From the IMG/VR virus record IMGVR_UViG_2541047165_000024: DNA of 9,704 bases, one strand, 5' to 3'. Positions 1,358 through 9,704 of this stretch are shown here, piece by piece (position 1 is the stretch's first letter; each line of letters starts with the position of its first letter). The notes below the pieces were generated by a model. It saw nothing but the letters and a program-made list of their open reading frames with translations. It was not told the DNA's origin and ran no database searches. The translations under genes and the position numbers were made by a program. Origin of the DNA: a virus. Its lineage: Duplodnaviria > Heunggongvirae > Uroviricota > Caudoviricetes.

Positions 1358-1421
1358 GAGCGTCGTTCGCTAATCATGGTCGCCGCCACTATAGCTGGTG
1401 GGCAACGACCGGGGTTGAACA

Positions 1422-1859
1422 TTAAAAATCAGCCTGATTCGGGATCAGTTTTTGCCAGATAACTGAAACGTATTTTGCCTGGTAACGGGCGTCATCAAGT
1501 GCATTATGGCGCTCACCTTCGAATGGAATAGCCGTTCTGGCATCGAAGTCTATGGCTTTCCCCAGCTCAACGATTGTGCGTACATCGCGATCGTTGTAGT
1601 AACGCCACGGGCAGGGGATCCCCTGCCGTTCGTATGAACGGCGCAAAATCGTGTTGTCGAAGTTGGCTCCATTTCCCCAGACCTGAACAAAAAATTCACC
1701 GGAGTTTTCGTCGATAAATTCCCGCAATTGTAACAGTGCATCATCTAACGGGATTTCATCGGTCATAATGGCAGATTGCGCTTCGCGTGATTGCTTAAGC
1801 CACCATTTAATGGTGTCCCTCGCCGTGTGCTTTCGTGTTGTGTGCCTGCTTTTTACCAC
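1422..1859 (-). CDS. DEDDh (DnaQ-like) 3'-5' exonuclease domain protein, apparently 5'-truncated (possible pseudogene or remnant)
   Basis: The translation contains an Exo II-like motif (VWGNGANFDNTIL) and an Exo III-like motif (HNALDDARYQAKY). No Exo I D-x-E motif is present. The frame opens with GTG at 1859, and translating upstream hits a stop after about 15 unrelated codons (around 1905-1907). The catalytic N-terminus therefore looks replaced by unrelated sequence. Confidence 0.65.
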   Translation of the reverse strand: MVKSRHTTRKHTARDTIKWWLKQSREAQSAIMTDEIPLDDALLQLREFIDENSGEFFVQVWGNGANFDNTILRRSYERQGIPCPWRYYNDRDVRTIVELGKAIDFDARTAIPFEGERHNALDDARYQAKYVSVIWQKLIPNQADF

Positions 1860-1883
1860 GTCAGGCGAGGTGGTCCCCGTTAT

Positions 1884-1929
1884 TCCCCAACAACAAGGAT
1901 CTTGTTAATCTGGATATCCCCAACAACAA
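1884..1929. repeat. Two direct copies of TCCCCAACAACAA spaced 33 bp apart, in the junction/promoter region upstream of the accessory ORF
   Basis: Read directly from the sequence: the 13-mer occurs at about 1884-1896 and 1917-1929. It sits between the truncated exonuclease and the divergent plus-strand ORF. Any function (regulator binding site or recombination scar) is inference. Confidence 0.6.
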
Positions 1930-1943
1930 TAAGAGTATTGAAT

Positions 1944-2459
1944 GTGATCGCTGAATTAACGGCAGCAATGACGGCTATTCGTGAAACCGCCCAGATTGCA
2001 AAACTAATGAACGAGGCAAAAACTCAAGCTGAAGTAAATGCGGCTATTGGTGAACTGAACTCAAAGCTTGCATCTATTCAGCGCGAATGCGTGTCTCTCG
2101 TTGAGCTGGTGGGCACTTATCAAGAAATAAATGCTTCTCTCAAAGCTAAAATTGCAGAATTTGAAAACTTTGAGGCTCAGACGGAAGGTTATATCCTTAG
2201 CCAACTTGAGTCGGGAACTTTTGTGTACTCGAAGGAGGTAACCGTGAACGGCGGCAGCATAATCATGCATCTTTGTCCAAAATGTTTTGGACAAAAGATA
2301 GTATCGATACTTCAGCCATTCCCGGTTAGAGAATATGAATTTTTTCATAAAAGCAGGTGCCTGTACTGTGAAAATCAGTTTCTTATGAATAAAAATCCGG
2401 ATTACGTATCACCTCCATCTATTGAAGAGTTGGCCAGAAAACTGAACGGCAATCTGTAG
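1944..2459 (+). CDS. Uncharacterised coiled-coil plus Cys4 zinc-ribbon protein (about 171 aa), candidate accessory or defence moron
   Basis: The long plus-strand ORF ends at TAG 2457-2459. The track's 1791 start overlaps the exonuclease gene and gives an implausible N-terminus. More plausible starts are GTG 1944 (preceded by AAGAG), TTG 1938 or ATG 1968. The N-terminal half is heptad-like and low in complexity (…AKLMNEAKTQAEVNAAIGELNSKLASIQRE…LKAKIAEFENFEAQ…). The C-terminal half carries CPKC and CLYC motifs about 25 residues apart. Codon composition is visibly AT-richer than the flanking genes, judged by eye and not computed. I recognise no named family. Confidence 0.6.
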   Translation: MIAELTAAMTAIRETAQIAKLMNEAKTQAEVNAAIGELNSKLASIQRECVSLVELVGTYQEINASLKAKIAEFENFEAQTEGYILSQLESGTFVYSKEVTVNGGSIIMHLCPKCFGQKIVSILQPFPVREYEFFHKSRCLYCENQFLMNKNPDYVSPPSIEELARKLNGNL

Positions 2460-2496
2460 ATTTTTACTGTTATGGATATCCAGATTGTTAAAGAGC

Positions 2497-2523
2497 ATGC
2501 CGGATGCTTGCTTGTGTCCGGCG
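2497..2523. terminator. Hairpin (GCCGGA-N12-TCCGGC) between convergent genes, a possible weak bidirectional terminator
   Basis: Inverted repeat at about 2499-2504 and 2517-2522, in the 114-bp gap between the plus-strand ORF (ends 2459) and the minus-strand small ORF (ends 2574). On the minus strand it is followed by AUGCUCUUU. There is no strong U-tract, so this is a weak call. Confidence 0.3.
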
Positions 2524-2573
2524 CGTGTGCACCACTCTCCCCCCGTGGAGGATTCCTTAATTACCAGATTTCA

Positions 2574-2804
2574 TTAGTCAGAGTTTCTTGCTAACCAGCG
2601 ACGCGCGCCAGATTCGGTTTTAAACGTTTTGCTTTTGGTATACGTCATCGCGGTGAACGTGCCGTCCTGGTTGGGAAACACGCCGCACACCAGAGATTCG
2701 TTGTTGCCAAGATCAAGAGTATCCATGCTGACCTCATATCCCCTTAACGCCGGGGTAGCGGAACAAAAACCTGCTGCATAGTTAAAGTTGAACCCTGCCG
2801 TCAT
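2574..2804 (-). CDS. Small hypothetical protein (76 aa), first gene downstream of the leftward pL-like promoter
   Basis: Minus-strand ORF with ATG at 2802-2804, preceded by GAGG about 9 nt upstream. It lies about 95 nt downstream of a near-consensus sigma-70 promoter that is overlapped by operator palindromes. It has no arginine-rich N-terminus, so it is not N-like. Function unknown. Confidence 0.5.
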   Translation of the reverse strand: MTAGFNFNYAAGFCSATPALRGYEVSMDTLDLGNNESLVCGVFPNQDGTFTAMTYTKSKTFKTESGARRWLARNSD

Positions 2805-2899
2805 GTTCTTACGCCTCGGGCTGGCTACTTAATCCCTGACCACTGCCGGGTAACTCTAGGTATTGCCCTGTATTGTGTGGGACGGGATGGGTTGGTATG

Positions 2900-2950
2900 G
2901 GAAAACTATAGGAAATGCCTAATTGCTTGTCAATAGGCTACGCCTAATGA
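2900..2950 (-). promoter_or_regulatory. Leftward pL-like promoter (-35 TTGACA, 17-bp spacer, -10 TATAGT) with overlapping operator sites (OL)
   Basis: On the minus strand the sequence reads TTAGGCgtaGCCTATTGACA-agcaattaggcatttcc-TATAGT. The -35 is at plus 2928-2933 and the -10 at 2905-2910. One operator palindrome abuts the -35 (about 2932-2947). A second TTAGGC half-site pair lies across the spacer and -10 (about 2908-2922). The layout is a mirror image of the cassette on the other side of the repressor gene. Confidence 0.6.
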
Positions 2951-3005
2951 TTTGGGTGCGACCTAATAGGTGATGGTTTGTGGGAGAGGTAGTAGGAGTT
3001 AACTA

Positions 3006-3027
3006 ACGGGAACTAGGAATTTCCCGT
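3006..3027 (-). terminator. Hairpin (ACGGGAA-N8-TTCCCGT) just downstream of the repressor stop, a candidate terminator or insulator
   Basis: Inverted repeat at 3006-3012 and 3021-3027, directly after the repressor stop (3042-3044) on the minus strand. The trailing sequence is only moderately U-rich (UAGUUAACU). Confidence 0.3.
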
Positions 3028-3041
3028 CGGACCATATAAGT

Positions 3042-3518
3042 TTAAGTTCCTGTCTTGGTGATGTTCTGGCTTTTCCGTTTTGATTCTTGATTTTTCAGAT
3101 AGTTAGCTACCTTCATTTCCATTGCGGCAATGTAGGCACGAACGTCATGATCAACCCAACTAGGCTCCGTAGCATTTCCAGATAAGAGGAAAGCCACAAT
3201 TGCTCTTTTTTCATCAGAGGCGGCTTGATAAAGGCTGTTTATGTCTAAAAGTTCACTTTTTGTATCTGAAGTGGATGGGGTTGGTATGGGGTATTCGTTA
3301 AGCCCCCAATGCTCTGGACCAACCACATCAGAAAAGAAACGCCATAGTTCTGGAAGTTTGTCTTTACTTATCGAACCTTTCTTAATCCAGTCATGGATTG
3401 ATGGTGGTTGGACTTTGAAATGACGTGCGATTTCCGCCTTTGATTTGACGGCTCCTGATGCAATTTTTTTGTTAATGGCCTGCTCTATCGCTCGGCCTAA
3501 GTCTTTACCACTAAGCAT
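3042..3518 (-). CDS. racR: Prophage immunity repressor, HTH (XRE/CI-like) without a LexA-type peptidase domain; RacR-like
   Basis: 158-aa ORF with an N-terminal HTH region (…KSKAEIARHFKVQPPSIHDWIKKGSISKDKLPELW…) and an AGGAGA RBS. It is divergent from a Cro-like gene and flanked on both sides by operator-bearing promoters. Size and context match the RacR position of Rac-type prophages. The symbol is given as a family-level analogy only. Confidence 0.85.
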   Translation of the reverse strand: MLSGKDLGRAIEQAINKKIASGAVKSKAEIARHFKVQPPSIHDWIKKGSISKDKLPELWRFFSDVVGPEHWGLNEYPIPTPSTSDTKSELLDINSLYQAASDEKRAIVAFLLSGNATEPSWVDHDVRAYIAAMEMKVANYLKNQESKRKSQNITKTGT

Positions 3519-3544
3519 TGCTTAATAGTCTCCTATGCGCATCG

Positions 3545-3616
3545 CATTAGGCAATACCTACTCTCGAAGCGTTAGGCATAGCCTATTGACAGTTGCATTA
3601 GGCTAAGCCTAATATT
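3545..3616 (+). promoter_or_regulatory. Rightward pR-like promoter (-35 TTGACA 3586-3591, -10 TAATAT about 3610-3615) with three operator-like palindromes (OR)
   Basis: Operators read from the sequence: TTAGGCaatACCTAC (about 3547-3561), TTAGGCataGCCTAT (3572-3586, abutting the -35) and the near-perfect TTAGGCtaaGCCTAA (3598-3612, overlapping the -10). This is a classical tripartite operator over divergent promoters. Confidence 0.65.
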
Positions 3617-3642
3617 ATTGTGTGTTTTTTGGAGTTCATTCG

Positions 3643-3966
3643 ATGAAAAAAGATAACTATTCATTCAAACGAGCTTGTGCTGTTGTCGGTGGGCAATCAG
3701 CAATGGCTAGGCTTTTAGGTGTATCTCCTCCAAGCGTAAATCAATGGATCAAAGGTGTACGTCAGTTGCCTGCTGAGAGATGTCCTGCGATTGAACGAGC
3801 AACAAAAGGTGGTGTCCTGTGTGAAGAACTTCGTCCTGATGTTGATTGGACATACTTACGACGCTCGTCATGTTATTCGCAGAATATGTCGATGAAGCAA
3901 CCAAATGACGAAAACGATCATACCCGAAGCATCAAGAGGCAAATGATTCATGAAAATCAAACATGA
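3643..3966 (+). CDS. ydaS: Cro-like HTH regulator of the YdaS type
   Basis: ATG at 3643 with GGAG 8 nt upstream. The track's GTG at 3622 gives an unlikely extension. The HTH region (…ACAVVGGQSAMARLLGVSPPSVNQWIKGVRQLPAERCPAIE…) is typical of Cro/YdaS-like proteins encoded divergently from the repressor. Confidence 0.8.
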   Translation: MKKDNYSFKRACAVVGGQSAMARLLGVSPPSVNQWIKGVRQLPAERCPAIERATKGGVLCEELRPDVDWTYLRRSSCYSQNMSMKQPNDENDHTRSIKRQMIHENQT

Positions 3967-4375
3967 GCACATCCGCATGGCGATGAATGCCTGGGCATAT
4001 CCTGATGGTGAGAAAGTTCCTGCAGCTGAAATAGCCCGGACTTATTTCGAACTGGGGATGACGTTCCCGGAACTGTACGACGACAGCCATCCGGAAGCCC
4101 TGGCTCGTAATACCCAGAAAATTTTCCGTTGGCTGGATAAAGACACCCCTGATGCTGTTGAAAAAATGCAGGCTCTGTTACCGGCGATCGAAAAGGCAAT
4201 GCCGCCTCTGCTGGTGGCCCGTATGCGCAGTCACAGCTCTGAATATTACCGTGAGATCGTCGAACGGAGGGATCGGCTGGTGAAAGATGTGGATGATTTT
4301 GTCGCAGCGGCGATCGCCTGGGGCACCCTGACTAACAGTGGGGGTCAGCCTGGTAATGCTGTTGTCGTGCATTGA
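3950..4375 (+). CDS. ydaT: YdaT-like protein (prophage toxin-like, repressor-controlled)
   Basis: 141-aa ORF overlapping the end of the ydaS-like gene by 17 nt, so probably translationally coupled. The N-terminus MKIKHEHI… and the position directly after the cro-like gene match the YdaT family of Rac-like prophages. Assignment is from recall, not a search. Confidence 0.78.
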   Translation: MKIKHEHIRMAMNAWAYPDGEKVPAAEIARTYFELGMTFPELYDDSHPEALARNTQKIFRWLDKDTPDAVEKMQALLPAIEKAMPPLLVARMRSHSSEYYREIVERRDRLVKDVDDFVAAAIAWGTLTNSGGQPGNAVVVH

Positions 4376-4437
4376 CCAACAATATTCATGCCGGATTTCT
4401 TCCGGATGTTCGAGGGTAAAGTTCGGTATCAGATGAG

Positions 4438-5481
4438 GTGAGTATGGCTAATGCCTGGCTCAGATTGTGGCATGACATGCCAAATGATCCCAAATGGCGA
4501 ACCATTGCCAGGGTCTCAGGACAGCCAATCGCAACAGTGATGGCGGTGTATATCCACCTTCTGGTGAGTGCGTCACGAAATGTCACGAAATGTCACGGCG
4601 AGTCACTACGTGGTCACATTGATGTCACGACGGAAGATTTAGCAAGTGCGCTTGATGTGACGGAAGACGTGATTGATTCAATTTTGCATGCAATGCAGGG
4701 GCGAGTTCTGGATGGCGATCTTATTTCCGGATGGGAAAAACGCCAGGTGATGAAGGAGGATAACGGTAATGTTTCGCAAACCGCAAAATCCCCGGCAGAG
4801 CGCAAGAGAGCGCAGCGGGAGCGGGAAAGACTGCGGGAGCAGAACACTGATTGTCACGATGAGTCACGACGCGTCACGCATATGTCACGACAAGTCACGA
4901 CAGATACAGATACAGATAAAGAATTAAACCCCACACATAACGCGCGCATGCGCGAGAGTGCTCCAGCCAGTGAGTCGAATGGCGCGCCGTTGCAGACAGC
5001 AGAACCTGAATACCCGGATGGCCTGAGCGAACCGATCGGGAAATTTCCGATGACTGGTGTCTGGCGGCCGTCGCTGGATTTTCGACAGCGGGCTGCATTG
5101 TGGGGTATGGCTCTGCCTGAGCCTGAGTTTACACCTGCTGAGCTTGCCGCATTCCGGGATTACTGGATGGCGGAGGGGAAGGTTTTCACGCAGGTTCAGT
5201 GGGAGCAGAAATTTGCCCGTCACGTGCAGCACGTCAGGGCACAGGTAAAACCAGTCAGCAAGGGGGTAAGCCATGCAGCACCAGGTGGCACCGCATCACG
5301 GGCAGTTCAGGAAATTCGGGCAGCACGTGAACAGTGGGAACGTGAAAACGGATTTATCAGCAACGGAAACGGCCTGGAAGCTGTGGGAACTTATGGGGGA
5401 GGTGTATTCGAACCGCTGGACCCAGAAGAACGGGGCTGCGCCGTCGAAGCTCTGGATTGCTCAGATTGGCGCGATGACTGA
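4438..5481 (+). CDS. Replication initiation protein (lambda O-like functional analogue or replisome organiser) with embedded origin iterons
   Basis: 347-aa ORF; the start is GTG 4438 or ATG 4444 after GAGGTG. It lies immediately upstream of a lambda P-like gene. The coding sequence contains two clusters of GTCAC repeats at helical spacing, the hallmark of an ori inside an O-type gene. Confidence 0.8.
   Translation: MSMANAWLRLWHDMPNDPKWRTIARVSGQPIATVMAVYIHLLVSASRNVTKCHGESLRGHIDVTTEDLASALDVTEDVIDSILHAMQGRVLDGDLISGWEKRQVMKEDNGNVSQTAKSPAERKRAQRERERLREQNTDCHDESRRVTHMSRQVTTDTDTDKELNPTHNARMRESAPASESNGAPLQTAEPEYPDGLSEPIGKFPMTGVWRPSLDFRQRAALWGMALPEPEFTPAELAAFRDYWMAEGKVFTQVQWEQKFARHVQHVRAQVKPVSKGVSHAAPGGTASRAVQEIRAAREQWERENGFISNGNGLEAVGTYGGGVFEPLDPEERGCAVEALDCSDWRDD
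4572..4628. repeat. Iteron cluster 1: six GTCAC(G) repeats at 10-11 bp spacing (putative ori component)
   Basis: GTCAC occurs at about 4572, 4582, 4592, 4602, 4613 and 4624, read directly from the sequence. Confidence 0.75.
4853..4918. repeat. Iteron cluster 2: five GTCACGA repeats at 10-11 bp spacing, followed by (ACAGAT)x3 and an A/T-rich stretch (putative ori core)
   Basis: GTCACGA occurs at about 4853, 4863, 4873, 4884 and 4894. It is followed by cagatacagatacagataaagaattaaa. Confidence 0.75.
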
Positions 5482-5935
5482 ACAGCAAATCCGGCAGGTC
5501 TGCCGTCAGTGCATGGACCGCTGCCGGGCGGGTGAAACGTGGCCTCCGGACCTGGCTGAGTTTGTGGCGTTGATTTCGGAGAGCGGGGCAAATCCATTTG
5601 GCCTGACGGTGGATGCCGTGATGGAGGAGTACCGTCGCTGGAGGAATGAATCCTGGCGGTACGACGGGAGTGATAAATACCCGTGGCCACAGCCGGTGCT
5701 GTACCACATTTGCCTCGAGATGCGTGACAGAGGGATTGAGCGGCAGATGACGGAAGGTGAGTTAAAACGACTTGCAGAACGGCAACTGACGAAATGGGCA
5801 AAGCAAGTTGGTAACGGGATGAGTATTCCCCCGATCCGGAGACAACTCGCATCGCCGAAGTGCCCGCAAGGGCCAACGCCAATTGAATTACTGAAACAGG
5901 AATACGAGCGCCGGAAGGCGGCTGGTTTTGTTTGA
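5273..5935 (+). CDS. Lambda P-like replication protein (helicase loader)
   Basis: ATG at 5273 is preceded by a strong AAGGGGG SD. The C-terminal half aligns by eye with lambda P (ours: WPPDLAEFVALI…DKYPWPQPVLYHI…MTEGELKRLAERQL; lambda P: LPSPGQFVAWC…ESYPWKSNAHYWL…LTDAELRRKAADEL). It overlaps the 3' end of the O-like ORF by about 209 nt in another frame. Confidence 0.8.
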   Translation: MQHQVAPHHGQFRKFGQHVNSGNVKTDLSATETAWKLWELMGEVYSNRWTQKNGAAPSKLWIAQIGAMTEQQIRQVCRQCMDRCRAGETWPPDLAEFVALISESGANPFGLTVDAVMEEYRRWRNESWRYDGSDKYPWPQPVLYHICLEMRDRGIERQMTEGELKRLAERQLTKWAKQVGNGMSIPPIRRQLASPKCPQGPTPIELLKQEYERRKAAGFV

Positions 5936-5968
5936 ATCTGAGAAACGATTTTGTCGGAGGAAATTTTA

Positions 5969-6685
5969 ATGGAAACCGTATCTGACGCACTGAAAGCACT
6001 GAAAAGAGCCTCTTCACATGTGGTGGCAGCTCGCCTTGGAATTAGTCGTGAAGAGGCTGTCAACGAACTGTGGAAACTGAAACGCCGTGGAGAAGCGGAT
6101 AACAAGGGGGCGATATGGTGGCTGACTCAGGCTGGTGAAAGTGAACCGGTGTCACCGGTACCGAAAGTGACGGCGCAAATGCTGACAGAGGCGATTGAAC
6201 AACATGGCCCACAAACGGCGGATGAACTGGCATTGATGTTCGGAATTACCTCCCGCCGGGCGAATTCATCGCTGGCAATGGCAATCAGCAAAGGGTGTCT
6301 GATTCGCGTGAATCAGGATGGTAAATTTCGTTACTGCATACCGGGCGTTGATTTACCGGCAGAGCCGAAAGCAGCATCCGTAGCTGAAACGGAGGGTAAA
6401 GCCCTTCCTCAGCCAGCTGGTGTTGCGTTACCAGTCCAGGAAACGGCTGCACAGGAAGAAATTAAAACAGAAGCGGTGGAGGACATTGTGAAGTTGCAGC
6501 AATCGTTCACTGAAGCGAAAGCAGATGACCTGATTCTACCATCGCTGCATGTGGCTAACCGCGAGCTGCGCCGGGCGAAAAGTAATGTTCAGAAGTGGGA
6601 GCGAGTCTGTGCTGCGCTACGGGAACTGAACAAACACAGGGATATTCTCCGGGATATTACCGCCACCAGAGAGCAGCAGCGGTGA
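5969..6685 (+). CDS. Hypothetical protein with two winged-helix-like repeats
   Basis: ATG at 5969 with GGAGG 8 nt upstream; the track's TTG at 5951 is unlikely. Two internal segments resemble each other (…[23 protein letters not shown]… and …[31 protein letters not shown]…). No Walker motifs are present. Confidence 0.65.
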
Positions 6686-6999
6686 GTGGCTGGAAGAAGT
6701 GGCGCTGGGCTGAAATCCTGATACTCCGGCAGTGTGCGGGAACGATGAGAGTCGAAAGCATCGGTTATCTGATTGGCCGTAGTGAGTCAGCCGTCAGGAC
6801 GAAAGCGCGGGAACTGGGTATCAGCATGATGTTACGGGGTGATTATCACCAGTCAGCCAAATGTTCACAGCGTGATATTGAGCTGGCGTGGCAACTGCAT
6901 CAGCGTGGTGTACCCCGACGGGAAATTGCCGAAAAGTTTGGGATGAAGTTGGGCGCAGTGAATAACTACGTTTATTTCGACAGGAGGGTTCAGGAGTGA
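6682..6999 (+). CDS. Small hypothetical protein with two HTH-like segments (possible DNA-binding)
   Basis: A GTG start at 6682 overlaps the upstream stop (GTGA), giving about 105 aa. The track's ATG at 6595 lies inside the upstream gene. The start choice is inference. Confidence 0.5.
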
Positions 7000-7298
7000 G
7001 GGTGAGGGTTTATATCGCCGGTCCGATGACGGGATATGAAAATTTTAACCGCGAGGCATTTCACAAAACGGAAGAGGTGCTGAAACGGGAAGGGCATACC
7101 GTTTTAAACCCGGCAGTACTTCCGGACGGGCTGACTCAGCCACACTACATGGATATTTGCATGGCAATGCTCCGTTGCGTGGATGCGGTTTACATGCTGA
7201 AAGGCTGGCAGCAGTCGGCAGGTGCAGGGGCTGAGCTGGCACTGGAGGAGAAACCGGGCCATGCGGTGATTTTTCAGGAGGTGGGCAGTGAATATTGA
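6996..7298 (+). CDS. DUF4406-like (nucleoside 2-deoxyribosyltransferase-like fold) protein
   Basis: N-terminal motif VYIAGPMTG…NFNREAF…VLNP, typical of this Rossmann-like family common in prophages. GTG start with GGAGGG upstream. Confidence 0.72.
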   Translation: MRVRVYIAGPMTGYENFNREAFHKTEEVLKREGHTVLNPAVLPDGLTQPHYMDICMAMLRCVDAVYMLKGWQQSAGAGAELALEEKPGHAVIFQEVGSEY

Positions 7299-7605
7299 CC
7301 CGGCGATAACGATTGATATGGCCCTGAACGCCGGCCTGGCACTTCTTGGTTATTTCTACATTATGTTCTGCAGCGGACGATGGCTGTCACTGTTGTTCAT
7401 GAAAAAATGGAATAAACGCCGTAAGCAGGAGCAACGCCAGAAGGCAATGGATGCATTTTTCGAAGCCTTCGGAATTGACGGCATGGAACCAGGGGATCCA
7501 GCTCGCGCAATCAGCAGAGGGGGTGTAGTAATCCTTGTATATCGGAGTGAAGAGAAAAATGACGATCACAAAACAACGTGTAGAAGAAATCATATCCCGC
7601 ATTGA
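7288..7605 (+). CDS. Small predicted membrane protein (single hydrophobic helix followed by a basic stretch)
   Basis: GTG at 7288 with AGGAGG 6 nt upstream. Hydrophobic segment ALNAGLALLGYFYIMFCSGRWLSLLF followed by KKWNKRRKQEQRQK. The 3' end overlaps the next ORF, so the true extent is uncertain. Confidence 0.45.
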   Translation: MNIDPAITIDMALNAGLALLGYFYIMFCSGRWLSLLFMKKWNKRRKQEQRQKAMDAFFEAFGIDGMEPGDPARAISRGGVVILVYRSEEKNDDHKTTCRRNHIPH

Positions 7606-7876
7606 AATGTATGGACATGGTGCAGGGTATATCGCAGACGAGGTTAATGATCTGGCTATACTGGCGCTGAATTTATCAAATATCGCGAACCTGAAGCGAT
7701 ACGAGCTTGATATGGGAGGTTGCGACTCGTGCGGTCAGGATTGTGGCGCTGATATGACTGAAGATCCTGATGGTGATTATGTCCTGTTTGATGACGTGGT
7801 TAAGTTGTTTGAATTTGATACAACCACTCAAAAGTTAGAAATCCCGGCAAAGGAGGCAGCCAGTGGGCAAGATTGA
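7559..7876 (+). CDS. Hypothetical phage protein with an acidic C-terminus
   Basis: ATG at 7559 after GAAGAG; the track's TTG at 7535 is less likely. No recognisable motif. Confidence 0.55.
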   Translation: MTITKQRVEEIISRIEMYGHGAGYIADEVNDLAILALNLSNIANLKRYELDMGGCDSCGQDCGADMTEDPDGDYVLFDDVVKLFEFDTTTQKLEIPAKEAASGQD

Positions 7877-8300
7877 CTATCAGGCACTGCGTGAGGCAGC
7901 ACAAAACTATCAATCGACGCTGGCGTGGTATCAGGCTACCCCGGACAGCCCAAATGCTGAACGGGATTGTGATGCGGCTCTTGCTGCGTTTAAGCGTCAC
8001 ATCCGTCATCGGGAAGCGGATATTATCGCTGATTTGCTGGATGGACTGGAAGAAGCAAAATCACAACTCAACGAGCAGCGTGAGTATTACGAAGGCGTTA
8101 TCTCTGATGGGAGCAAGCGTATTGCTGAACTGGAAGCGCGGGAAGTTCAATTACCGACTCGCTACGACCTTCGATATGGACACCCGATAAATGCAGATGA
8201 GCGACATGTCATGATACCTAAAGAAAATGGCAGTTGGCTTTACCTGATTGACCTAGAACACGCATTACGCGTCGCTGGCATTCGCATCAAAGGAGAGTGA
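7863..8300 (+). CDS. Hypothetical coiled-coil phage protein (Ea22-region-like)
   Basis: GTG at 7863 with AAGGAGG 6 nt upstream. It overlaps the upstream stop and is tightly packed with its neighbours. Confidence 0.65.
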   Translation: MGKIDYQALREAAQNYQSTLAWYQATPDSPNAERDCDAALAAFKRHIRHREADIIADLLDGLEEAKSQLNEQREYYEGVISDGSKRIAELEAREVQLPTRYDLRYGHPINADERHVMIPKENGSWLYLIDLEHALRVAGIRIKGE

Positions 8301-8301
8301 G

Positions 8302-8493
8302 ATGAACGGACAAATATCAATTGTTCGACCAGGAGCATGTGACGATCGCGAAATACGAATGATTATTCGTCTGGCGATGGGGAAAACAATAACTGCTCTC
8401 ATTACTCCAGAAAATCTCGCATTAGCATTAACAGGAAAGTCAGACATGCCAGTAGAGCTAAAGCTGCGAAATGTTGAGATTAAGGTGAAATAG
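8302..8493 (+). CDS. Small hypothetical phage protein (63 aa)
   Basis: ATG at 8302 with AGGAG 6 nt upstream, 1 nt after the previous stop. Confidence 0.6.
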   Translation: MNGQISIVRPGACDDREIRMIIRLAMGKTITALITPENLALALTGKSDMPVELKLRNVEIKVK

Positions 8494-8495
8494 CT

Positions 8496-9083
8496 ATGAC
8501 CACTATTACCAAAGATCGACTGCTGACAATCCAGCATTGGCGCGAAACATACGGACCGGGTAGCAACGTTGTGCTTCCAGCAGAAGAAGCGGAAGAGCTG
8601 GCACGGATTGCGCTGGCATCACTGGCAGCAGTATCGGATGAACGAGCAGCCTATGAATTATTTATGGAGAAGCGTTTCGGAGAATCTGTAGATCGCCGCA
8701 GAGCAAAAAATGGCGATAGAGATTACATGGTATGGGATATGGCGCTTGGCTGGATTATCTGGTGTCACCGCGCCGCCATGCTTCAGGCTGGAAACTTTCG
8801 GGAAAATAAGGGTTCGTCAACCAATAATTTTCGGGAAATCTCGGAAACGTCAACCAACTATCCGGTAACTCCGGATGGTTGGATAAGCTGTAGTGAGCGA
8901 ATGCCGGATGATGGTCAGCACGTAATTATTTTATGTGATGGCGCATTCGTTCTTTATGCGCAATATCGAGACGGTGAGTTTTTTGATGTAGTCCGTAATG
9001 GTGATGAATTTTTCGAAACACAGAGCCGCAATGTAACCGACTGGATGCCGCTACCAGAACCGCCGCAGGAGGTGCGCCAATGA
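8496..9083 (+). CDS. DUF551-domain phage protein
   Basis: The C-terminus carries the characteristic DUF551-type motif (…WISCSERMPDDGQHVIIL…NVTDWMPLPEPP). ATG at 8496 with AAGGTG upstream. Confidence 0.75.
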   Translation: MTTITKDRLLTIQHWRETYGPGSNVVLPAEEAEELARIALASLAAVSDERAAYELFMEKRFGESVDRRRAKNGDRDYMVWDMALGWIIWCHRAAMLQAGNFRENKGSSTNNFREISETSTNYPVTPDGWISCSERMPDDGQHVIILCDGAFVLYAQYRDGEFFDVVRNGDEFFETQSRNVTDWMPLPEPPQEVRQ

Positions 9084-9163
9084 TCTGGCCTGAAGCCTTT
9101 GCAATTACAGGCGTTGCTATAGCTATTGATTTTTTAGTATATGTTATTTGTCGGTGGGGGTAA
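9080..9163 (+). CDS. Putative 27-aa hydrophobic peptide (MIWPEAFAITGVAIAIDFLVYVICRWG)
   Basis: Not in the ORF track because it is under 60 aa. ATG at 9080 overlaps the upstream stop (ATGA) and has AGGAGG 7 nt upstream. Predicted single transmembrane helix. Confidence 0.35.
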   Translation: MIWPEAFAITGVAIAIDFLVYVICRWG

Positions 9164-9198
9164 AAACGTTCGCCGGGATTCACACCAAAGGAGGGAAT

Positions 9199-9303
9199 AT
9201 GTCGGATGATATTTCACTGGCAATGGAAGGTGCGCTGGCTGTTATTGCTGTTGTGGGCGTTTACTGCCTGGTTGTGTTTTTGATGGATCGACTAGGGAAC
9301 TGA
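9199..9303 (+). CDS. Putative 34-aa hydrophobic peptide (MSDDISLAMEGALAVIAVVGVYCLVVFLMDRLGN)
   Basis: ATG at 9199 preceded by AAGGAGGG; stop TGA at 9301-9303. Predicted single transmembrane helix. Too short for the ORF track. Confidence 0.4.
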   Translation: MSDDISLAMEGALAVIAVVGVYCLVVFLMDRLGN

Positions 9304-9311
9304 ATTCATTA

Positions 9312-9333
9312 CGATATGGGAATTCCCATATCG
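9312..9333. repeat. Perfect 22-bp palindrome CGATATGGGAATTCCCATATCG
   Basis: Read directly from the sequence. It lies 9 bp after the stop of the 34-aa peptide ORF and upstream of the hok leader. It is not followed by a T-tract. Function unknown; it may be a protein-binding site or an RNA hairpin. Confidence 0.7.
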
Positions 9334-9434
9334 GGTAAAAACGGTTTGCGGTAAAGCGAGAGTTAAGTAGAATTGCTGCGGGTGCTTGAGGCTGTCTGCC
9401 TCGGGCATGCCACCGTAAGGTAGACAGAGAAAAG

Positions 9435-9505
9435 CCCCAGTTAACATTACGCGTCCTGCAAGACGCCTAACATTAATCTGAGGCCAATTTCATGCTAGAC
9501 ACATG
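9435..9505 (-). ncRNA. sok: Predicted sok-like antisense RNA of the hok locus
   Basis: This is inference. A candidate minus-strand promoter (-35 TTGCCT at plus 9530-9535, 17-bp spacer, weak -10 TAACCT at 9507-9512) would start a transcript near 9500. That transcript would be antisense to the mok SD (GAGG about 9480-9483) and start codon (9492), as in hok/sok loci. The 3' end and terminator were not identified. Confidence 0.3.
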
Positions 9506-9704
9506 TAGGTTAGCCTCTTACGCGCCGAAAGGCAAGGAGAAGCAGGCTATGAAGCAGCAAAAGGCGATGTTAATCGCCCTGATCGTCATCTGTATCACCG
9601 TCATAGTGACGGCACTGGTAACGAGGAAAGACCTCTGCGAGGTACGAATCCGAACCGGCCAGACGGAGGTCGCTGTCTTCACAGCTTACGAACCTGAGGA
9701 GTAA
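9492..9704 (+). CDS. mok: mok-like reading frame (in-frame N-terminal extension overlapping hok)
   Basis: ATG at 9492 with GAGG 8 nt upstream. It reads in frame through hok to the same stop, consistent with the mok/hok arrangement in which mok translation is coupled to hok expression. Confidence 0.65.
   Translation: MLDTCRLASYAPKGKEKQAMKQQKAMLIALIVICITVIVTALVTRKDLCEVRIRTGQTEVAVFTAYEPEE
9549..9704 (+). CDS. hok: Hok/Gef family type I toxin (HokD/RelF-like), 51 aa
   Basis: Translation MKQQKAMLIALIVICITVIVTALVTRKDLCEVRIRTGQTEVAVFTAYEPEE is unmistakably Hok/Gef family. ATG at 9549 with AAGGAGA 8 nt upstream. The stop TAA is the last codon of the window. Confidence 0.92.
   Translation: MKQQKAMLIALIVICITVIVTALVTRKDLCEVRIRTGQTEVAVFTAYEPEE

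Follow-up and report, generated by a model that had tools for sequence, protein, structure and literature searches.

A probable lysis-lysogeny switch of Rac type, with a ydaT gene of the CP-933P type, in a lambdoid prophage

Genes and control sites of the racR-ydaS-ydaT region

The stretch of phage DNA analysed here (the window, 9,704 nucleotides) carries two small genes on the plus strand, ydaS (3643-3966, 107 aa, ATG after GGAG) and ydaT (3950-4375, 141 aa, ATG after AAGAGG), which overlap by 17 nt (3950-3966). A sequence-only reading of this DNA had described a Cro-like helix-turn-helix (HTH) gene followed by an overlapping YdaT-like gene, and both open reading frames lie exactly where that reading placed them. 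The ydaS product matched the Pfam family YdaS_toxin (PF15943, E=3.8e-30, 103.9 bits with a cut-off of 30) and also P22_Cro (PF14549, 1e-8, 35.3 bits with a cut-off of 30.2) and HTH_3, and in PHROGs it belongs to phrog_35, a family of transcriptional repressors (6e-34). YdaS is 85% identical to its K-12 counterpart at the protein level. The gene is 13 codons longer than K-12 ydaS, because the K-12 stop codon TGA reads CGA in the window, and it runs through the YdaT-box described below.

The ydaT product matched YdaT_toxin (PF06254, E=2.6e-10, 41.1 bits with a cut-off of 21) in Pfam, phrog_163, a CII-like transcriptional activator family (3e-47), in PHROGs and the PDB sequences 8bt1 (E=8.7e-80) and 3c4r (E=1.9e-75). 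It shares 122 of 140 residues (87%) with the crystallised YdaT of CP-933P, and the recognition helix (residues 50-63), including R60 and W61, is identical to that in 8bt1. The identity to K-12 YdaT (P76064) is only 31% and homology to Rac at the DNA level stops about 13 nt past the YdaT-box, which argues against orthology between these two genes.

Divergent from ydaS lies racR (3042-3518, minus strand), encoding a repressor of 158 aa that corresponds to CI. The protein is 92% identical to K-12 RacR and passes the NCBIfam equivalog NF049929 (246.8 bits with a cut-off of 200), which alone named it, as searches of Pfam, PHROGs and PDB sequences gave no match. The C-terminal S24 peptidase domain that marks a LexA/CI-type, SOS-cleavable repressor was not detected in RacR with Pfam, where no family matched at all. 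The repressor of prophage Sp6 of strain Sakai has been described as having no peptidase domain, and mitomycin C fails to induce this prophage (PMC2669165). In O157:H7 genomes, RefSeq labels the three genes racR, HTH protein and toxin YdaT family protein.

Three RacR-type operators form an OR cluster (3547-3612) in front of ydaS: TTAGGCAATACCTAC (3547-3561), TTAGGCATAGCCTAT (3572-3586) and TTAGGCTAAGCCTAA (3598-3612). They are TTAGGC-N3-GCCTAA-like inverted repeats spaced 25-26 bp apart, and the last one is a perfect repeat. Both the operator consensus, (T/A)TAGGC-N3-GCCTA(T/A), and the RacR footprint have been determined in K-12 (PMC9638921). A weak operator, CTAAGCATTGCTTAA (3511-3525), lies over the racR start codon with three mismatches to the consensus and is the equivalent of K-12 O3, whose sequence contains the same 15 bases (PMC9638921). 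On the other side of racR, an OL-like cluster (2908-2947) holds two putative RacR-type operators 25 bp apart, ATAGGAAATGCCTAA (2908-2922) and ATAGGCTACGCCTAA (2933-2947), to which RacR would be expected to bind. This cluster is also conserved downstream of racR in K-12 Rac, and its arm at 2928-2952 repeats the OR arm at 3567-3591 in inverted orientation with 88% identity. Across the 9.7-kb window, sites with at most two mismatches to the 15-mer were the three of OR and otherwise only the two at 2908-2947, so that operator-like sites are restricted to two clusters flanking racR, each overlapping a near-consensus promoter.

The promoter at OR, the PR analogue PydaST, has the elements TTGACA-18 nt-TAATAT (3586-3615, plus strand) and lies within the three operators, as expected from the earlier claim of an operator-controlled rightward promoter upstream of the pair. 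The mapped K-12 PydaST has the same hexamers and spacing (PMC11879457). The PL-like promoter, TTGACA-17 nt-TATAGT (2905-2933, minus strand), fits 11 of 12 consensus positions, lies within the OL-like cluster and is conserved downstream of racR in K-12 Rac. Promoter-like sites are not enriched in the region 2500-4600 (2 found, 2.7 expected from shuffling), and the promoters are credited here by their placement in operator clusters and by identity to the mapped K-12 promoter. A putative PRE-like promoter inside ydaS (3733-3765, minus strand) is the counterpart of K-12 PracR4, whose elements have been mapped and which is activated 29-fold in a YdaT-dependent manner (PMC11879457). Its -10 element TACGCT (3738-3733) is conserved, the -35 element is CTGACG (3765-3760) compared to TTGACG in K-12, a change of 1 nt, and the spacer has an unusual length of 21 nt. 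At the ydaS/ydaT junction lies the 18-bp YdaT-box ATGATTCATGAAAATCAA (3943-3960), with the ydaT start codon within its spacer. The box matches the footprinted K-12 Rac site in every base (PMC11879457) and is 1 nt off the OM site of CP-933P, TTGATT-N6-AATCAA (PMC9986795).

The region has these parts of a Rac module: a RacR-family repressor divergent from ydaS, several operators overlapping the ydaS promoter, a YdaS-family Cro-like first gene, a YdaT-family second gene with Arg-Trp in the recognition helix and a YdaT-box inverted repeat at the junction of the two. The Rac-type architecture proposed by the sequence-only reading is borne out by gene order, operators, promoter and orthology to K-12 Rac, and the features it described are real and far above chance expectation. 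Between racR and ydaS, mean column identity to K-12 is 94%, with operator cores and promoter hexamers conserved. Since RacR, the intergenic region and YdaS are all orthologous to K-12 Rac, where repression of ydaS-ydaT by RacR has been studied (PMC5700373, PMC9638921), we can safely infer that RacR represses ydaS-ydaT here as well.

Prophage context and mosaic origin

Rightward of ydaT follow an O-like replication initiator with a DnaT domain (4438-5481, plus strand, RefSeq start 4444), which contains iteron-like repeats at 4572-4597 and 4853-4902, and a lambda P-like helicase loader (5474-5935, plus strand, PF06992, phrog_109, a RefSeq CDS). Further downstream, Sakai Sp6 has an annotated Q gene and a lysis cassette. 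Positions 1413-9704 (85% of the window) are found in one place in 276 complete genomes and show 1 difference from O157:H7 EC4115 and 4 differences from Sakai Sp6, three of them, at 3556, 3570 and 3592, within a 37-bp stretch of OR; gene content is shared with Sp6 from the exonuclease fragment to hok/mok. Positions 1-1412 (int, xis) match the prophage at the ompW site in these strains without a difference, and an assignment of the whole window to Sp6 at potC was rejected since this part belongs to the ompW-site prophage. The YdaT-family gene of that prophage was also considered as a CP-933P-type copy and rejected, as it is of a different, frameshifted YdaT type and has no canonical box.

The left operon is heavily deleted, with a truncated exonuclease gene (1422-1859) and with kil and recET absent, and head and tail defects have been reported for Sp6 (PMC2669165). 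From this it could be argued that the prophage is dead and that its switch genes are decaying remains with no current regulatory role. We find this very unlikely since the three regulator reading frames, the operators, the promoter and the YdaT-box are all intact, the near identity to EC4115 over 1413-9704 and the number of complete genomes with that part do not suggest decay, and Sp6 still excises spontaneously, transfers to K-12 and lysogenises it (PMC2669165).

The module is a mosaic, consisting of a racR-OR-ydaS cassette of Rac ancestry and a cassette of ydaT and the O gene of CP-933P/phage Evi ancestry. The ancestry switches at a conserved block of about 35 bp that contains the 18-bp YdaT-box, with similarity to K-12 Rac DNA collapsing just past the box. 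Phage vB_EcoS-683R6 (Rac type) has the same gene order; phage Evi has the same order and the same ydaT type but a different repressor and cro. The ydaT type of the window is present in 2959 of 5426 complete E. coli genomes while racR and ydaS are found in about 1090, showing that ydaS and ydaT are not inherited together. Compared to racR, it is found in about 1870 additional genomes, with as many as 6 copies in a genome, and it is also combined with other repressors; racR and ydaS co-occur almost perfectly (1086 versus 1090 genomes). An O157:H7 genome has four copies of this ydaT type and a single copy of racR. In the O157 genomes, a search for a second homoimmune racR found none, with one place per record, at megablast sensitivity, where more distant paralogues could remain.

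The independent recombination of ydaS and ydaT also speaks against a true type II toxin-antitoxin pair in which YdaS would be the antidote to a toxic YdaT. Such a pair is supported only by the Pfam names (PF15943 and PF06254), the small overlapping genes and the RefSeq label for ydaT, and the toxin names come from computational prediction that experiments did not bear out (PMC5917428, PMC9986795). YdaT binds DNA at a defined operator as a POU-like tetramer (PMC9986795), the toxicity of K-12 YdaT is unchanged by co-expression of YdaS (PMC11014345), and a PADLOC scan of nine window proteins gave no match to a defence system. Here, a third protein, a repressor with operators of its own, would govern the pair, the two genes differ in ancestry, and the YdaT is 87% identical to the DNA-binding tetramer. 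We find such a pair hardly credible at this locus.

The joint itself, comprising the YdaT-box and the first eight codons of ydaT, might serve both for cassette swapping and as a regulatory node shared between prophages, where the derepression of one prophage would raise repressor synthesis in heteroimmune others, including the one controlled by RacR. We put this forward tentatively and consider it rather doubtful. It could be possible because O157:H7 has four copies of the ydaT type and because the two types of YdaT, only 30% identical, act on one another's boxes, both of them activating the YdaT-box-dependent promoter (PMC11879457). If true, such cross-talk would couple lysogeny decisions across the whole prophage pool of O157:H7, and the YdaT-box joint together with the multicopy ydaT family is a modest lead in this direction.

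The probable lysis-lysogeny switch and the question of toxicity

With the gene identities, operators, promoter, YdaT-box, mosaic junction and genome distribution established above, the locus is very probably where a Rac-like lambdoid prophage decides between lysis and lysogeny, an immunity switch in which RacR, YdaS and YdaT are the analogues of CI, Cro and CII. The same roles have been demonstrated for RacR/YdaS/YdaT and for PaaR2/YdaS/YdaT (PMC8630535, PMC11014345, PMC5917428). For the locus studied here, we infer all binding and regulatory activities from orthology. RacR would bind the TTAGGC-N3-GCCTAA operators in OR and keep the strong rightward promoter off, and it probably acts also at the twin OL/PL operator-promoter cluster on its other side. 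When repression lapses, a single mRNA from the rightward promoter would give both YdaS and YdaT, and the transcription unit is predicted to run on through the replication genes (O-like, P-like) to Q and lysis. The K-12 YdaS is known to repress its own expression and to promote excision. YdaT, with its POU-like helix-turn-helix tetramer, for which the structure of the operator-binding CP-933P protein has been solved (PMC9986795), would bind the YdaT-box, which spans the start codon of ydaT, and switch on the leftward promoter inside ydaS, thereby raising racR expression, opposing ydaS transcription and moving the cell back toward lysogeny.

The analogy with lambda has its limits in K-12, where YdaS did not repress racR (PMC9638921) and where Rac excision was unaffected by YdaT (PMC11014345). 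The altered -35 element and the 21-nt spacer of the PRE-like promoter also count against the switch reading.

The sequence-only reading had gone further and claimed a latent toxic pair held silent by the repressor in an addiction-like arrangement. This claim is partly supported: the Rac architecture stands, while a latent toxic pair finds no support in that form, as the YdaT is of the CP-933P type that has been reported to be non-toxic; rather than toxins, ydaS and ydaT are counterparts of cro and cII in an immunity region of lambdoid type (Jobling, PMC5917428; Jurenas 2021, PMC8630535). In its strict form, the claim makes ydaS and ydaT the lethal effectors of a toxin-repressor addiction module and RacR conditionally essential through them. 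In its favour, K-12 racR could not be deleted unless ydaS-ydaT was removed (PMC5700373), an observation that also sits uneasily with a plain switch. Furthermore, the silencing of racR led to filamentation and death (PMC5700377; a 2026 preprint), and K-12 has close orthologues of RacR, the operators, PR and YdaS. The single copy of racR in O157 genomes and its near-perfect co-occurrence with ydaS point in the same direction, although such linkage is expected of any immunity cassette.

However, K-12 lethality maps mainly to the K-12-type YdaT, whose toxicity goes through the host rcsA promoter (PMC11879457; PMC11014345). With 31% identity to that toxic form and 87% to the CP-933P form, the window YdaT belongs with a protein that gave no toxic effect (PMC8630535) and does not activate the rcsA promoter (PMC11879457). 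The toxicity of K-12 YdaS is disputed, being lethal in one study (PMC5700373) and not toxic in another (PMC11014345). The spread of this ydaT type beyond racR, in several copies and under other repressors, does not fit a module held by RacR, and excision offers the cell an escape route (PMC11014345; PMC2669165). Because the YdaT falls in the clade reported to be non-toxic, the addiction reading does not carry over to the allele studied here, and we regard the addiction module as unlikely.

It is nevertheless plausible that the repressor is conditionally essential here, since there is one racR copy per O157 genome and since Q and lysis genes lie downstream in Sakai Sp6. Such essentiality would be no more than the need of any lysogen for its repressor, from which the cell could escape by excision, which is spontaneous in Sp6 (PMC2669165). 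The loss of RacR may well be harmful, with ordinary prophage derepression as the more likely route. Under the switch reading, lethality would come mainly from the general derepression of replication, Q and lysis, possibly with an overdose of YdaS, and a toxic action of YdaT is not expected to be its source. A specific share of ydaS-ydaT, especially of YdaS, is possible given the requirement in K-12 for removing the pair before racR could be deleted.

A Rac-type switch is already known in E. coli O157:H7 and the genes are already annotated, and the finding is real but ordinary. Its main value is corrective, as the toxin labels in Pfam and RefSeq together with the story from K-12 suggest an addiction module. 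For the engineering or curing of an Sp6-type prophage in O157:H7, ordinary derepression and excision are to be expected upon the loss of racR rather than killing driven by YdaT.

Relation to K-12 Rac, CP-933P, lambda and Sp6

K-12 Rac (b1356-b1358) has racR, ydaS and ydaT in the same order and orientation as the window and shares with it RacR (92%), YdaS (85%), the intergenic region (94%), the TTGACA-18-TAATAT promoter, the 18-bp YdaT-box and the OL-like cluster. In K-12, a gap of 22 nt separates ydaS from ydaT, whereas in the window the K-12 ydaS stop is lost and the genes overlap by 17 nt. The replication genes of K-12 Rac are ydaU and ydaV (DnaC-like) compared to the DnaT-domain O and lambda P-type genes in the window, and kilR, recET and ralRA, found left of racR in K-12, are absent from that position in the window.

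The closest relative of the YdaT is in paaR2-ydaS-ydaT of CP-933P (Sakai Sp12, O157:H7), with 87% identity, an identical recognition helix and a ydaS/ydaT junction operator 1 nt off that of the window (PMC9986795), and the CI/Cro/CII logic is lambda-like in both (PMC8630535). In contrast, the repressor is PaaR2 in CP-933P and RacR in the window, and paaA2-parE2 toxin-antitoxin genes lie behind the former but not the latter. The window YdaS is of the Rac type, while the YdaS of CP-933P is about 26% identical to K-12 YdaS (PMC8630535). The integrase of CP-933P is disrupted and excision is not expected, in contrast to Sp6, which excises (PMC2669165).

Lambda and the window are alike in having a repressor and a cro gene divergent around a three-operator OR, a second operator-promoter cluster beyond the repressor, a CII-type gene after cro, a site at the cro/cII junction where the activator would bind and switch on a leftward promoter and, next, O-like and P-like genes with internal iterons. 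They differ in that no sequence homology to CI and CII can be detected for RacR and YdaT, with only YdaS matching a Cro family (P22_Cro), in that Pfam shows no S24 peptidase domain in RacR and mitomycin C does not induce Sp6 (PMC2669165), and in that no N-like gene is evident left of racR in the window. The site of YdaT is an inverted repeat, bound by a symmetric tetramer, while lambda CII binds direct repeats (PMC9986795). Sakai Sp6, in which the loci concerned are ECs_1506 (repressor), ECs_1507 (ydaS) and ECs_1508, differs from the window in positions 1-1412 (int, xis), which are not Sp6.

Genes and control sites of the racR-ydaS-ydaT module

The ORF list gives two genes on the plus strand, ydaS (3643-3966, 107 aa) and ydaT (3950-4375, 141 aa), which overlap by 17 nt, and racR (3042-3518, 158 aa) on the opposite strand. 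In Pfam, the ydaS product matched YdaS_toxin (PF15943, E=3.8e-30), with secondary matches to P22_Cro and HTH_3, and the ydaT product matched YdaT_toxin (PF06254, E=2.6e-10); their PHROGs assignments were phrog_35, a transcriptional repressor family, and phrog_163, a CII-like activator family, respectively. The 158-aa product scored above the NCBIfam RacR equivalog cut-off (246.8 bits against 200) and had no match in Pfam or PHROG. In a DNA alignment with K-12 Rac, the ydaS stop codon TGA of K-12 is CGA in the window, so that the gene runs on for 13 more codons, giving the overlap with ydaT that had been seen in the sequence-only reading.

Between racR and ydaS lies the rightward promoter PR (TTGACA-18-TAATAT, 3586-3615), embedded in the OR operators, three TTAGGC-N3-GCCTAA-like inverted repeats (3547, 3572 and 3598, 25-26 bp apart). 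ORFs, Pfam and PHROGs matches, promoter and repeats together confirm the description of a Cro-like HTH gene and an overlapping YdaT-like gene downstream of an operator-controlled rightward promoter. Across the whole window, the only sites with two or fewer mismatches to the operator 15-mer were those of OR and two sites on the other side of racR (2908 and 2933). The latter belong to a cluster 3' of racR (2905-2947), where a near-consensus leftward promoter, TTGACA-17-TATAGT, overlaps two operator-like repeats. This cluster, which lies beyond the coordinates of the sequence-only finding, is kept in K-12 Rac, and its layout is that expected of OL/PL; the repeats are candidate RacR sites. In the literature examined, RacR binding is described for the racR-ydaS intergenic region only. 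The left operon contains a DUF1391 gene, an unknown gene in the opposite orientation and a truncated exonuclease, with no kil, dicB, recT or recET genes, and is largely deleted in this element.

The inverted repeat at the ydaS/ydaT junction, the YdaT-box ATGATTCATGAAAATCAA (3943-3960), has the ydaT ATG inside its spacer, as in K-12, and agrees in every letter with the site DNase I footprinted with K-12 YdaT (PMC11879457). It differs by 1 base from the high-affinity site of CP-933P YdaT, TTGATT-N6-AATCAA (PMC9986795). The K-12 box mediates a 29-fold YdaT-dependent activation of PracR4, a leftward, PRE-like promoter inside ydaS, leading to more racR expression, and PracR4 is activated by the Rac and CP-933P YdaT proteins alike (PMC11879457). 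The PracR4 counterpart in the window retains the -10 TACGCT and has CTGACG at -35 versus TTGACG in K-12, and is likely to be functional. The spacer of this promoter also contains AATCAA and GATCAA (3739-3752), hexamers that resemble YdaT half-sites; situated about 190 bp from the YdaT-box, they could be a secondary contact for a YdaT tetramer.

Source prophages and neighboring genes

The segment 2800-4440 was 100% identical to many Escherichia coli O157:H7 chromosomes, where RefSeq annotates, adjoining potC, racR, an HTH protein and a "toxin YdaT family protein." The Sakai record assigns the region to prophage Sp6, with ECs_1506 (phage repressor), ECs_1507 (ydaS antirepressor) and ECs_1508 (transcriptional regulator). 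The possibility that the window is plain Sp6 was rejected: Sp6 of EC4115, at potC, matches positions 1439-9704 without a difference, and positions 1-1733 (integrase, excisionase and 3' end of the exonuclease) are those of another prophage of these O157:H7 strains, at ompW, again with full identity. The two prophages have 1413-1819 in common, and diagnostic SNPs place the crossover between 1438 and 1734, within the exonuclease fragment that both contain. No complete E. coli genome carried the window in full at a single place (best coverage, 85%); it is thus either a recombinant that arose naturally between prophages or a chimera of the assembly. The ydaS-ydaT region is not affected by this.

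The exonuclease fragment (1422-1859, minus strand) is what is left of a protein of ~820 aa, namely, its C-terminal 145 aa with an Rv2179c-like domain; it is a RefSeq pseudogene, and homology to the full-length gene of the ompW-site prophage stops at ~1820. In strain TR01, the ompW-site prophage has another repressor-cro pair followed by a more distantly related YdaT-family gene (MKITTEQV...; 14111-14661 of its locus). This gene is frameshifted and lacks a canonical YdaT-box, so that the same genome also contains a naturally inactivated family member. Over 1413-9704, four positions separate the window from Sakai Sp6, and three of them (3556, 3570 and 3592) are clustered in a 37-bp stretch of OR. 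The first lies in the operator at 3547-3561, whose GCCTA half-site is better with the G of Sakai; the second precedes by 2 nt the TTAGGC half-site of the next operator (3572-3586); and the third adjoins the PR -35. Through these differences, the switch may be set differently in different O157 lineages.

A 171-aa ORF of unknown function (1944-2459, plus strand; phrog_1244; two CxxC pairs) runs against the left operon and occupies the position of sieB in K-12 Rac. It had no NCBIfam or PADLOC match and, in Pfam, a weak coiled-coil match alone; it may be a moron or exclusion gene. The right end of the window (9380-9704) is a genuine type I toxin-antitoxin locus, with a sok RNA (RF01794, 9380-9554, 114 bits against a gathering score of 59) and a hok/mok ORF ending at 9704 (RefSeq hokD or MokC).

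A mosaic module with an exchangeable ydaT

RacR and YdaS of the window are 92% and 85% identical to those of K-12 Rac, and the racR-ydaS intergenic regions have 94% mean column identity, with operator cores and promoter hexamers conserved, whereas the YdaT proteins are just 31% identical. The window YdaT instead matched the crystal structure of CP-933P YdaT (8bt1, E=8.7e-80), and also 3c4r. With CP-933P YdaT it shares 122 of 140 residues, among them R60, W61 and the whole recognition helix (residues 50-63); the differences lie in helices 1-2 and the C-terminal tail. DNA identity to K-12 is high from upstream of racR to ~3973 and then collapses. A four-way alignment of the window, K-12 Rac, the Rac-type phage vB_EcoS-683R6 and phage Evi, which has a different repressor and cro, revealed a ~35-bp block, (A/T)TGATTCATGAAAATCAA(G/A)CATGA(G/A)CACATC, in all four sequences. 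The window is Rac-like to the left of this block and Evi-like to its right, indicating a mosaic whose two parts meet where ydaT begins.

Of 5426 complete E. coli genomes, 1086 had racR together with its operators (one per O157 record) and 1090 had Rac-type ydaS, compared to 2959 with the CP-933P-type ydaT body, present in up to six copies per genome (four in O157:H7); 530 had the hybrid module in full (80% or more of 2800-4440). These counts point to racR and ydaS as one immunity cassette with ydaT as an exchangeable neighbor, which is what one expects of mosaic modules in lambdoid elements. If ydaS and ydaT were a co-adapted toxic pair, they should travel together.

A probable lysis-lysogeny switch and its relation to known systems

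The module is very probably a lysis-lysogeny switch. RacR would keep PR, and probably PL, shut; firing of PR would yield one transcript for the Cro-like YdaS and CII-like YdaT and then an O-like initiator and a lambda-P-like loader, and YdaT, acting via the YdaT-box on the PRE-like promoter, would restore RacR. No peptidase domain was detected in RacR (no Pfam family matched), which fits the behavior of Sp6, reported to undergo spontaneous but not mitomycin C-triggered induction (PMC2669165). Iteron-like tandem repeats in the O-like gene (GTCACGAAAT x2.6 at 4572-4597, GTCACGACAA x4.9 at 4853-4902 and ACAGAT x3.8 at 4900-4922) are probably the prophage replication origin, and further downstream Sakai Sp6 has annotated Q, holin, endolysin and Rz genes. 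The long P-like ORF and the O-like gene share 209 nt in different frames (5273-5481; RefSeq P start, 5474), and phrog_15931 (482 positions) spans both proteins as if fused, its positions 279-347 being matched by both.

The sequence-only reading had proposed a toxic pair held silent by the repressor. In K-12, racR could be deleted only if ydaS-ydaT was also removed, and that study also reported overexpression of YdaS to be lethal (PMC5700373). Other workers identified YdaT and not YdaS as the killer, with a requirement for host rcsA, and found that YdaS triggers excision of Rac, which rescues the cells (PMC11014345). K-12 YdaT binds the rcsA promoter directly, but the CP-933P homologue is unable to activate it (PMC11879457), and no toxic effect was seen for CP-933P YdaT (PMC8630535). 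The toxin-antitoxin label itself is a computational prediction to which experiments gave no support (PMC5917428; PMC9986795). Since the window YdaT belongs to the CP-933P clade and has the identical recognition helix, the K-12-specific mechanism of YdaT toxicity is not expected to apply to this allele. Of the sequence-only reading, the Rac-type architecture is supported; a latent toxic pair, as stated there, is not. That ydaS and ydaT are specific lethal effectors is improbable, and what likelihood the idea has comes mostly from YdaS. Loss of RacR would likely be harmful, as in any lysogen whose replication and lysis genes still work, and excision with curing would offer an escape.

Much of the system is already known: RefSeq and the Sakai record carry annotations of these genes, the family has been taken apart in genetic, biochemical and structural work, and excision and transfer of the prophage have been subjects of earlier study. 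Our additions to this picture are small, namely, the hybrid of a Rac-type racR-ydaS with a CP-933P-type ydaT and the location of the joint at the YdaT-box.
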